From Bacteroidaceae bacterium (GTDB lineage: Bacteria; Bacillota; Clostridia; TANB77; CAG-508), in NCBI GenBank assembly GCA_963621875.1, contig CAVFFR010000001.1, forward strand, positions 15,940 to 79,939: a stretch of 64,000 nt of DNA, written 5' to 3'. A program made the position numbers and the translations under genes. The notes under the pieces were generated by a model. The model saw nothing but the letters and a program-made list of their open reading frames with translations, had not been told where the DNA came from and made no database searches. Every line of letters starts with the position of its first letter. Within the stretch, counting starts at the first letter, position 1. Below, in pieces: positions 62,646-64,000 of the stretch.

Positions 62646-64000
62646 ATGGAAACTTTTACAAAATTCTTATATGAATTTCTTGGACAGTTCTTTTCTGGTA
62701 TAGGAACAATGTTTGGAGGAATAGGAAAAGGAATAAAAGAATTAGTTAATATAAAAGCTTACTCAGATATAATAAATAATTACAAGGGCGACTTTTCAAT
62801 GCCAGAATGGGCGTTGGTTGCAATAGCTGTTGGCCTAATATTATTAATATTTGTTTTGGTTGGATTACTAATATTCTTTACAATTAGAAAATACGGAAAA
62901 ATCAGAAAAAAGGCTGTTGATCAAGATGCACTACTTCAAGAAGTAGCTTCATTAAATGGACAAGTAGCAAGATTAGTAAAAGAAAAAGAAGACATATTAG
63001 CGATGAAAGTATCACAGCTTGGTCTAAGACCTAATGAGAGTGCTGAAGAAGATGCACAAGAGGATAAAAAAGAAGAAGATCCTTCAATGCAAGGTACGAG
63101 ATTTGCTAAACTTGCTACAATAGATGAGGAATTTGCAAATTACAAAATTAAAAACTATGGAAACAATTTTACATTGCCAGAGCTTTGTGAACATTTTAGA
63201 AATTTTGCAGCATCAAGACTAAGACTATTTTATACAATAGATATGATGAGATTGTTTATATCAGCATTAGCTTCTACAAAGCTAGTTATACTACAAGGTA
63301 TATCTGGAACAGGTAAAACATCACTTGCATATGCTTGGGGAAAATTTTTAAAACACGACTCGTGTATAGCATCTGTACAGCCATCTTGGAGAGATAGAAC
63401 AGAGTTATTCGGATATTTCAACGAATTTACAAAAAAATTCAATGAAACAGAAGTACTAAAAGAAATGTATATGGCAGGATATACTGATGATGTTTATACA
63501 GTAATATTAGACGAGATGAACATAGCCCGTGTTGAGTATTACTTTGCAGAAATGTTGTCAATTCTCGAAATGCCTAACAAAAATGAATGGATTATAGAAC
63601 TAGTGCCAAGTAGTTGGAAATCTGATCCAGTAAGATTAAAAGAAGGAAAACTAAAAATACCACCAAATATGTGGTATATAGGGACAATCAACAACGACGA
63701 CTCTACATTCATGGTTACAGATAAGGTTTACGATAGAGCAATGCCAATAGATATAAACGATAAAGGTAAAGTATTTGAGCCAATAGATATGCCACCATTA
63801 GATATAAATTATTCATACTTAGATAATTTATTTACAATGGCTATGCAAGAACATCAAGTTTCAGAAGATACTTTGGCTAAAATAGAACTAATGGATGACT
63901 ATACAATAAAACATTTCCGTATAGCATTTGGTAACCGTATTGTTGCACATATGAAAAAATTCGTGCCAGTATATGTAGCTTGCGGAGGAGACGAAATTGC
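62646..64000 (+). CDS. Membrane-anchored McrB-family AAA+ GTPase (partial, truncated by the window end).
   Basis: Gly-rich amphipathic N-terminus plus a TM (WALVAIAVGLILLIFVLVGLLIFF) and a coiled-coil. Walker A GISGTGKTS. McrB-type Walker B/sensor VILDEMNIARVEYYFAEMLSILE. McrB NxxD-like GTINNDDST. RBS agaggt. Confidence 0.65.
   Translation, partial: METFTKFLYEFLGQFFSGIGTMFGGIGKGIKELVNIKAYSDIINNYKGDFSMPEWALVAIAVGLILLIFVLVGLLIFFTIRKYGKIRKKAVDQDALLQEVASLNGQVARLVKEKEDILAMKVSQLGLRPNESAEEDAQEDKKEEDPSMQGTRFAKLATIDEEFANYKIKNYGNNFTLPELCEHFRNFAASRLRLFYTIDMMRLFISALASTKLVILQGISGTGKTSLAYAWGKFLKHDSCIASVQPSWRDRTELFGYFNEFTKKFNETEVLKEMYMAGYTDDVYTVILDEMNIARVEYYFAEMLSILEMPNKNEWIIELVPSSWKSDPVRLKEGKLKIPPNMWYIGTINNDDSTFMVTDKVYDRAMPIDINDKGKVFEPIDMPPLDINYSYLDNLFTMAMQEHQVSEDTLAKIELMDDYTIKHFRIAFGNRIVAHMKKFVPVYVACGGDEI

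Follow-up and report, generated by a model that had tools for sequence, protein, structure and literature searches.

A predicted membrane-anchored McrB-like GTPase of the CoCoPALM class, with a nuclease-free McrC-like partner, in a SipW and secreted-protein gene cluster

McrBC is the textbook GTP-dependent restriction enzyme. Here we describe a gene for a putative membrane-anchored relative of McrB, situated at the end of a 64,000-nucleotide stretch of contig CAVFFR010000001.1 (assembly GCA_963621875.1, contig positions 15,940 to 79,939; hereafter, the window). It starts at window position 62646 and is preceded by genes for SipW-type signal peptidases and small secreted proteins, the candidate subunits of a surface fibre. 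A shortened NxD motif defines a major branch of McrB GTPases (Bell et al., 2024, section 7; PMC11090510). Within their survey these authors named a clade, CoCoPALM, whose analysis they deferred to a future paper (eLife 13:RP94800). They described it as having an NxD GTPase to which a transmembrane/coiled-coil domain resembling FtsB is fused, McrB and McrC homologues that usually both have coiled coils, and associated genes of the signal peptidase family. We found the term in no other paper of the literature searched, and the supplementary text of Bell et al. does not mention it either. Searches pairing McrB with SipW, or McrB-like with pilus and TasA, returned irrelevant matches only (e.g., an E. 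coli strain genotype).

By its sequence, the window gene belongs to CoCoPALM: it has the NxD motif of the McrB GTPases, an N-terminal transmembrane helix with a coiled coil, an adjacent McrC homologue with a predicted helical C-terminus, and signal peptidase genes nearby. Nothing in the published text, a single paragraph without gene-level anatomy, contradicts this membership. That the class already had a name was missing from the preliminary description of this DNA. Several features are new relative to the published description, namely, a partner without a nuclease in a cluster where no nuclease is detectable, five SipW paralogues including a conserved pseudo-peptidase, a fusion of SipW with the protein encoded directly upstream of the GTPase (U332), and a conserved outer N-terminal segment of the GTPase.

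Relation to described systems

The module shares with McrBC of E. coli and Thermococcus (PDB 6hz4, 6ut6, 6ut5) the AAA+ GTPase fold and motifs, an adjacent DUF2357 partner and, presumably, the ring-plus-plug assembly with partner-stimulated GTP hydrolysis. In contrast to McrBC, the window GTPase has a transmembrane helix and a stalk in place of the DNA-binding N-terminal domain, and NxD instead of NxxD; the partner is without the PD-(D/E)xK nuclease, and the locus is a secretion/fibre operon, not a defence island. With no DNA-binding domain and no nuclease, the module falls outside canonical McrBC.

CoCoNuT systems (PMC11090510), which are probably also the PADLOC candidate PDC-M26, have in common with the window module the NxD branch of McrB, a coiled-coil fusion and McrC homologues often without an active nuclease. 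Unlike the window GTPase, they are soluble, with coiled coils of >300 amino acids, no transmembrane helix and no signal peptidases, and they reportedly are always accompanied by HEPN or other nucleases if McrC has no nuclease. As no associated nuclease was detected in the window cluster, the module does not fit the definition of a CoCoNuT. The PDC-M26A profile matched residues 194–316 of the GTPase only, at profile positions 315–438 of 724 (E = 1e-33), and no PDC-M26 model matched the partner or the neighbouring proteins in the PADLOC scan. With this match to the GTPase core alone and no second component, the module does not qualify as PDC-M26. A literature search on PDC-M26 found no paper.

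On the secretion side, the closest described systems are the SipW-TasA/TapA operon of Bacillus and the SipW-BsaA operon of Clostridium perfringens. In these, as here, a dedicated ER/archaeal-type signal peptidase is encoded beside the secreted fibre subunits it processes, and there are several paralogous small secreted proteins. They differ from the window cluster in having one SipW and no NTPase, compared with four to five SipW paralogues, a giant protein and a GTPase module here; moreover, the secreted proteins of the window cluster have no significant match to TasA or camelysin (one weak match among 52). The type IV pilus assembly ATPase with its platform protein (PilB/PilC) and the mechanotransmission ABC systems MacB, FtsEX and LolCDE are functional analogues only, in which a cytoplasmic hexameric or dimeric NTPase acts on extracytoplasmic substrates by way of membrane-spanning helices. 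They are not homologous to the window GTPase and involve other ATPase superfamilies and other pilin types.

The GTPase and its McrC-like partner

The open reading frame starts with ATG at 62646, remains open for 451 codons and runs past the window end. The full-length protein, P0001, has 508 amino acids and is identical to it over the 451 residues. Assignment to the McrB family, already made in the preliminary description, is borne out by profile, sequence and structure comparisons as well as by the McrB-type motifs. The NCBIfam McrB model matched residues 151–370 with E = 7.9e-5; as this falls well short of the equivalog cutoff, the protein is not an McrB orthologue. In a phmmer search against all PDB sequences, the three best matches were E. 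coli McrB (including 6ut6/7vsr; E = 2e-4). Foldseek, run with the AlphaFold2 model of the GTPase, placed McrB 6hz4_E on top (1.6e-7), with similar scores for MCM, dynein and MoxR-type proteins, AAA+ members of the same clade. The likeness to McrB is weak and distant, yet specific and above chance. A search of 1.84 billion cluster representatives yielded 8286 clusters with E ≤ 1e-3, of which 754 had E ≤ 1e-30.

The N-terminal region, residues 1–148, is made up of an amphipathic segment, a transmembrane helix, a coiled coil and an acidic linker (Table 1), and holds no DNA-binding domain of the kind that reads modified bases. The AlphaFold2 model, built with 29 relatives (predicted local distance difference test score, pLDDT, of 84), contains three short helices in the glycine-rich start of the protein (residues 2–22, 26–33 and 36–49; pLDDT about 85), consistent with the amphipathic character ascribed to it earlier. 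Aromatic positions in this segment are kept in relatives with as little as 22% identity to the window sequence in the N-terminal region. The membrane anchor and coiled coil, also proposed before, were recovered as one strong hydrophobic helix at residues 55–80 (maximal Kyte-Doolittle 19-residue mean 3.33), as a single continuous helix comprising the transmembrane part and the stalk at residues 52–124 in the model, and as matches of the N-terminal profile to designed and natural coiled coils across residues 78–120. Since the transmembrane helix is followed by RKYGKIRKK, the positive-inside rule predicts that residues 1–52 are outside the cytoplasm and that the C-terminal AAA+ domain (residues 150–508 in the model) is cytoplasmic.

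All motifs quoted in the preliminary description, that is, the Walker B/sensor region VILDEMNIARVEYYFAEMLSILE and GTINNDDST (residues 346–354, with N349 at nucleotide 63690), are present. Across the 133 representative domains aligned, N349, D351 and S353 never vary, T354 occurs in 132, and position 352 is D or E in 128 (96%). The family signature is NxD[D/E]ST, i.e., the NxD variant and not the canonical NxxD which the lone NNDD seems to offer. We conclude that the protein is an NxD-branch McrB-family AAA+ NTPase in which a conserved segment of ∼50 residues, a transmembrane helix and a helical stalk stand in place of the usual DNA-binding N-terminus. Use of GTP rather than ATP is presumed.

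In a tblastn search of 72,556 plasmids and 50,697 phage genomes, the full GTPase architecture was never found; the matches covered the GTPase domain only, with at most 37% identity. A sister group of GTPases carries an N-terminal domain with four transmembrane helices, which in some members has a precomputed match to tetraspanin PF00335 (L088:8001-11397, L089:8001-11804 and L090:8001-12326). These form stand-alone two-gene modules with a partner of 519–834 amino acids that is weakly similar to DUF2357 (hhalign E = 1.5e-4 and 2.5e-5). They are surrounded by housekeeping genes and have no SipW gene close by, and we rejected an extension of the SipW link to them. This group is not described in the CoCoPALM paragraph of Bell et al.

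The sequence beyond 64000 was approached through relatives. Starting from an 87% identical orthologue, P0009, and then from the partner, P0147, we reached three metagenomic contigs (L085–L087) that are collinear with window positions 56000–64000 at 91.8% nucleotide identity, with a 98% identical GTPase. In these contigs, the GTPase stop is followed by 13 nucleotides with AGGAGG and the gene of a 378-amino-acid protein, and then by genes for a SipW-type peptidase of 202 amino acids, a small secreted protein of 204 amino acids, further small secreted proteins, veg, sipL and yunB. The layout downstream of the GTPase is the same in four loci with the 87% identical orthologue (L001–L004).

The partner (376/378 amino acids) matched the Pfam domain DUF2357, the N-terminal domain of McrC, above the gathering score (E = 2.4e-11), and nothing else. 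Among its homologues, the best 120 of 2750 likewise match DUF2357 and no other Pfam domain, and nearly all have 367–403 amino acids. The C-terminal half is predicted to be helical. No PD-(D/E)xK nuclease was detectable in the Pfam scan of the partner and these 120 homologues or in the alignment of the partner family, where no D...(D/E)xK is conserved; the sole candidate, a glutamate in REPIKK, is replaced in many members. Hence the partner is, as judged from its sequence, an McrC N-terminal-domain homologue that has lost the nuclease. Its most conserved stretch, residues ∼53–131, is also the one with the lowest confidence in the monomer model, which would fit a finger that folds only inside the GTPase ring, as that of McrC does.

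The preliminary description had called the GTPase the last gene of the fibre operon. This needs correction, as in the relatives genes on the same strand go on to encode the partner, a fifth SipW-type peptidase and one or more additional small secreted proteins. A partner beyond 64000, which it had foreseen as an option, does follow in the form of a DUF2357 gene; what it is not is a canonical McrC with a PD-(D/E)xK domain. The combination proposed as a mark of ordinary McrBC defence, a canonical McrC together with an operon boundary between 62630 and 62646, was not found, the downstream partner having only the N-terminal domain of McrC.

Conservation and composition of the gene cluster

To survey the cluster, one genome per species (GTDB) was scanned with conserved peptide patterns, and at least 593 stretches were found to encode a relative of the GTPase. 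Eighty loci with 52–88% identity were retrieved from metagenome-assembled genomes of gut, rumen and sediment origin, labelled Clostridia, Bacilli, 'Tenericutes', Erysipelotrichaceae, Ruminococcus, Acutalibacteraceae or Oscillospiraceae. The open reading frames of 84 loci were labelled by phmmer, with the cluster proteins of the window and of L002 as queries. The gene with the McrC N-terminal domain is directly 3' of the GTPase gene in 82 of the 84 loci, the remaining two ending at contig ends, and the gap between the two genes is mostly 0–40 nucleotides. Within a few genes of the pair there is a SipW-type peptidase in 80 loci and genes for small secreted proteins in 78; in 64 loci, the SipW peptidase is the next gene after the partner. 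At the same time, the loci represent at least three different gene orders, such as SipW_c-T215-SipW_d-T190-T318-U332-GTPase-McrC_N-SipW_e-T205 and T257-T326-SipW-GTPase-McrC_N-giant (numbered T names denote small secreted proteins). As the association of the pair with SipW and secreted proteins persists despite the changed gene order, it reflects functional linkage rather than chance adjacency.

In the window, the GTPase ATG follows the stop codon of U332 (62630) after the 15 nucleotides reported earlier, which contain AAAGAGG ahead of the ATG. Judged by this spacing, the GTPase is probably co-transcribed with the fibre genes, as had been proposed. No terminator-like site was found on the plus strand between 61632 and 64000, and the G+C content of the cluster (28.8%) is that of the window (28.3%). 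A promoter scan was uninformative in DNA with 28% G+C (128 sites compared with 127.8 expected) and neither supports nor excludes an internal promoter. The region 58211–58406 is a divergent intergenic region between a minus-strand gene for a 327-amino-acid protein and the first plus-strand gene of the cluster. It contains, at 58320–58348, a promoter-like TTGAAA-17-TATATT with an extended -10 (TG), a likely start of the GTPase transcription unit in a scan that has no statistical power in AT-rich DNA.

The gene at 45126–45935, upstream of the cluster, encodes a homologue of YabG, a sporulation peptidase, whose NCBIfam match (E = 2e-77) narrowly misses the equivalog cutoff. Together with veg, sipL and yunB downstream in the relatives, this places the cluster in a neighbourhood of sporulation and housekeeping genes, in a spore-forming Firmicute with 28% G+C.

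U332 is the upstream neighbour of the GTPase in 42 loci. It had no Pfam match, and its family profile had no match in the PDB. A degenerate EAL (cyclic di-GMP) domain, suspected from the motif GFxFAIxLD, was not supported, as none of 25 members matched Pfam EAL at E ≤ 1 and there was no PDB match. In ten loci, a SipW peptidase with intact catalytic motifs is fused at its C-terminus to a full-length U332 homologue (hmmsearch E = 1e-38 to 1e-50). The fusion proteins have 650–756 amino acids and consist of the SipW-type peptidase, a charged linker and the U332 homologue, and their genes are directly upstream of the GTPase gene. Because U332 is fused to the C-terminal tail of SipW, expected to be cytoplasmic after the C-terminal transmembrane helix of that peptidase, it is likely to be cytoplasmic and in physical contact with the SipW peptidase. 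Therefore, U332 is a plausible adaptor between the SipW peptidases and the GTPase module.

Four SipW-type genes are present in the window, and the fifth lies beyond 64000, as seen in the collinear relatives. The one that opens with TTG at 56615 overlaps the end of the preceding SipW gene by 29 nucleotides (56615–56643), and its start is uncertain, as gene callers place it later in a close relative (168 amino acids). In the pseudo-peptidase encoded at 58407–58940, the catalytic motifs are absent, and none of 48 orthologues from related loci has kept the serine (SM.P) or the histidine (THR) motif. It constitutes a conserved family and is possibly a substrate-holding subunit.

Common to all the small secreted proteins of the cluster is a hydrophobic anchor at the N-terminus, with a Y-A-x-[FY]-like motif after it. 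At least seven of them (window 58955–61610; L002:13378-16716) are mutually paralogous by hhalign, with probabilities of 95–99.9: 99.9 for T215/T200m, 97.8 over the full length for T215/T190, 96.7 for T215/T205, 96.4 for T205/T200m, and 95.5 over 149 columns for T190/T318. T257 and T326 have in common the C-terminal motif W-x-EGQDVDC-x-N. An identification of these proteins as TasA-like failed, as there was no NCBIfam match, no PDB match for T326 (the only family searched) and one weak camelysin match. In the lineage with the 87% identical orthologue (L001–L004:6299-6923), the T215 orthologue is split into overlapping reading frames of 84 and 132 amino acids, indicating a frameshift or a pseudogene.

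The giant protein of 2777 amino acids had no family match; homologous giant genes adjoin the cluster in 38 loci. In L001, an insertion sequence element with genes for an rve integrase and a helix-turn-helix transposase (3162–4525) occupies the place where other contigs have the giant gene and the first two SipW genes. Since this element takes their place in an otherwise orthologous locus, the giant-adhesin part of the cluster is variable. The giant gene is preceded by a 522-amino-acid reading frame without a family match (46114–47682); it could be part of the cluster, given that many of the related loci have a reading frame of ∼500–540 amino acids beside the giant gene. The divergently transcribed 327-amino-acid protein had no family match in the library scans. 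Each cluster protein was scanned against Pfam, NCBIfam or PADLOC and no nuclease family was found, except that a divergent HEPN could escape such scans.

Table 1. Features of the gene cluster and of the GTPase gene (window coordinates unless a locus is given).
Feature	Position	Strand	Basis
Giant repeat protein, 2777 amino acids, N-terminal membrane anchor; putative surface fibre/adhesin	47706..56039	+	Open reading frame
SipW-type signal peptidase I	56062..56643	+	TIGR02228 E 1.8e-28, above cutoff
SipW-type signal peptidase paralogue, weak match	56615..57178	+	SipW model E 9e-12, below cutoff
327-amino-acid protein, divergently transcribed	57227..58210	-	Found in 13 loci; belongs to the cluster in the nearest relatives
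SipW-like pseudo-peptidase	58407..58940	+	Weak SipW matches below cutoff; lacks the catalytic Ser and His motifs
Small secreted protein T215, pilin-like paralogue	58955..59602	+	hhalign to T200m, T205
SipW-type (archaeal/ER-type) signal peptidase I	59589..60107	+	TIGR02228 E 7.7e-19, above cutoff; has the catalytic motifs GSM and THR
Small secreted protein T190, pilin-like paralogue	60104..60676	+	hhalign to T215, synteny
Small secreted protein T318	60654..61610	+	N-terminal hydrophobic anchor; hhalign to T190; alternative ATG 60696 gives 304 amino acids; conserved in loci
U332, 332-amino-acid protein directly upstream of the GTPase	61632..62630	+	Upstream neighbour in 42 loci
McrB-like NxD-type AAA+ GTPase	62646..64000	+	Open reading frame/translation, identical protein P0001, McrB matches; window holds 451/508 codons
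Conserved N-terminal segment, residues 1–52, Gly-rich, three short amphipathic helices	62646..62801	+	AlphaFold2, conservation in relatives
Single predicted transmembrane helix, residues 55–80	62808..62885	+	Kyte-Doolittle; helix at the same place in representatives with one transmembrane helix
Predicted cytoplasmic helical stalk/coiled coil, residues 81–124	62886..63017	+	AlphaFold2 and profile matches to coiled coils
Acidic disordered linker, residues 125–148	63018..63089	+	Sequence; pLDDT <50 over 125–148
Walker A GISGTGKT, G218–T225	63297..63320	+	G218, G221, G223, K224 invariant in 133 representative domains
Walker B D289–E290, inside VILDEMNIARVEYYFAEMLSILE	63510..63515	+	D289 133/133, E290 132/133
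GTPase signature N349-N-D351-D-S-T	63690..63707	+	Alignment of 133 representative domains
SipW-U332 fusions	L051:7748-9913, L054:3-1973, L056:7821-9998, L059:7731-9998, L063:7953-9998, L064:8049-9998, L065:7875-9995, L067:8057-9994, L074:7938-9995, L076:7749-10001		

Possible roles of the module

We regard it as highly probable that this CoCoPALM member is functionally tied to the fibre cluster and does not act in restriction. We infer that its most likely role is that of a GTP-driven motor or switch for fibre assembly. The assembly motor, one of the two alternatives offered in the preliminary description, is the reading we favour, the support for it being genomic association. By analogy with McrBC structures, six GTPase subunits would form a ring under the membrane on six stalks. 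The finger of the McrC-like partner, highly conserved but disordered in the monomer, would enter the ring pore and trigger GTP hydrolysis. Instead of moving or cutting DNA, the complex would dock via U332 and via the tails, charged and cytoplasmic, that the SipW peptidases carry. GTP turnover would then power or gate the steps by which the secreted fibre subunits are processed, released and polymerised and, perhaps, the export of the giant protein. Force or a signal could be passed through the stalk and transmembrane helices to the conserved outer segment. This motor mechanism is in itself tentative. With similar reservation, we suggest that a nuclease-free derivative of McrBC may power or gate a monoderm surface-fibre machine. 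In it, a GTP-driven AAA+ ring, plugged by an McrC-like rotor, held by six transmembrane stalks and docked via the U332 adaptor to SipW peptidases and pseudo-peptidases, would drive the extraction, cleavage and polymerisation of pilin-like subunits and a giant adhesin. For the explanation as a whole, we have reasonable but limited confidence, as a compromise between the link to the class and the fibre cluster on the one hand and the motor mechanism on the other.

The other alternative of the preliminary description, an independent defence module that happens to be adjacent, is disfavoured by the position of the pair amid SipW and secreted-protein genes in about 80 of the 84 loci, which come from different species. 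A module derived from McrBC could still act in restriction or abortive infection from within the fibre operon, or use the membrane as its effector site, attacking invading nucleic acid or killing the infected cell. Such a role would agree with the McrB/McrC ancestry, with the PDC-M26A match of the GTPase domain, with the plasmid-borne relatives of that domain and with the sister clades of the NxD branch, the CoCoNuTs, which are predicted defence systems (PMC11090510). It is improbable given that the partner has no nuclease domain and none was detected in any cluster protein scanned, and that no other PDC-M26 component was matched. Moreover, SipW and secreted-protein genes flank the pair on both sides in spite of rearranged orders, the intergenic gaps on both sides are short with no terminator, and the neighbouring U332 can be fused to a SipW peptidase. 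Also, the G+C content is native and the flanks are housekeeping genes, and no full-length copy was found on the plasmids or phages searched.

A role closer to the favoured motor would be that of a GTP-dependent switch or checkpoint, where a membrane-anchored FtsB-like scaffold places or times fibre assembly (e.g., at the septum or a pole) or reports the state of the envelope, with the McrC-like protein as the GTPase-activating partner. No energy need is known for TasA-type fibres, which suits a switch, as does the transmembrane helix with a coiled coil, an arrangement found in FtsB/DivIC. Homology to FtsB was claimed for the class (PMC11090510), and McrC stimulates the GTPase activity of McrB (PMC11090510, section 7, citing Niu et al., 2020). 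On the other hand, AAA+ rings of this clade (McrB, MoxR, dynein, MCM) are typically mechanochemical, the FtsB similarity is not significant, and the conserved extracytoplasmic N-terminal segment suggests transmembrane coupling over mere localisation. We consider a pure switch rather unlikely, while the present evidence gives no discrimination between switch and motor. Even less credence is due to a membrane quality-control or extraction machine, which, like AAA+ unfoldases, would clear cleaved SipW-type signal anchors or stalled precursors of the giant protein or pilins from the membrane or the Sec translocon. An AAA+ ring tethered to the membrane, many long N-terminal signal anchors and an export substrate of 2777 amino acids encoded in the cluster, and a conserved pseudo-peptidase that could hold substrates would all be in line with it. 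Against it, there is no protease partner, and the pore of the McrBC ring is filled by McrC (6hz4, 6ut6), so that threading through the pore is unlikely.

Several points weigh against a fibre-assembly motor as we propose it. To our knowledge, TasA and other fibres of the donor-strand type need no NTPase for their assembly, so that it is not evident why a motor would be required. No significant match to TasA, camelysin or a solved pilin was obtained for the small secreted proteins, with one of 52 matching Peptidase_M73 (E = 3.7e-4), and the label of a pilus for the cluster is itself an interpretation. The McrC-like partner lies outside the window, being known from the 92% identical relative, and its model has a pLDDT of just 64. 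The FtsB homology of the GTPase N-terminus is below threshold, with E = 1–1.5 for FtsB in the PDB, aligned across the transmembrane helix and coiled coil, and Pfam DivIC matching three of 16 members (best E = 0.018). Among defence-database profiles, PDC-M26A is the closest, and the nearest described relatives of the GTPase domain are defence candidates. Finally, the literature on CoCoPALM amounts to one paragraph, with no experiment on any member.

The GTPase gene is a mid-operon component, and the module belongs to a computationally defined class named in 2024. Among Firmicutes of gut and rumen the module is widely distributed and very common, as indicated by the pattern-matched stretches and by thousands of protein clusters. 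The nuclease-free partner, the SipW-U332 fusion and the conserved pseudo-peptidase provide handles on whether, and how, SipW-dependent fibres need energy. If the proposed role is true, an AAA+ defence motor has been reused for cell-surface biogenesis, having shed its nuclease and its binding to DNA, acquired a membrane anchor and taken a fixed place in a secretion/fibre operon. This would be the first function of the McrBC family that does not involve nucleic acids, and the first NTPase-dependent assembly route for SipW-dependent fibres, widespread in uncultured gut Clostridia and Bacilli.

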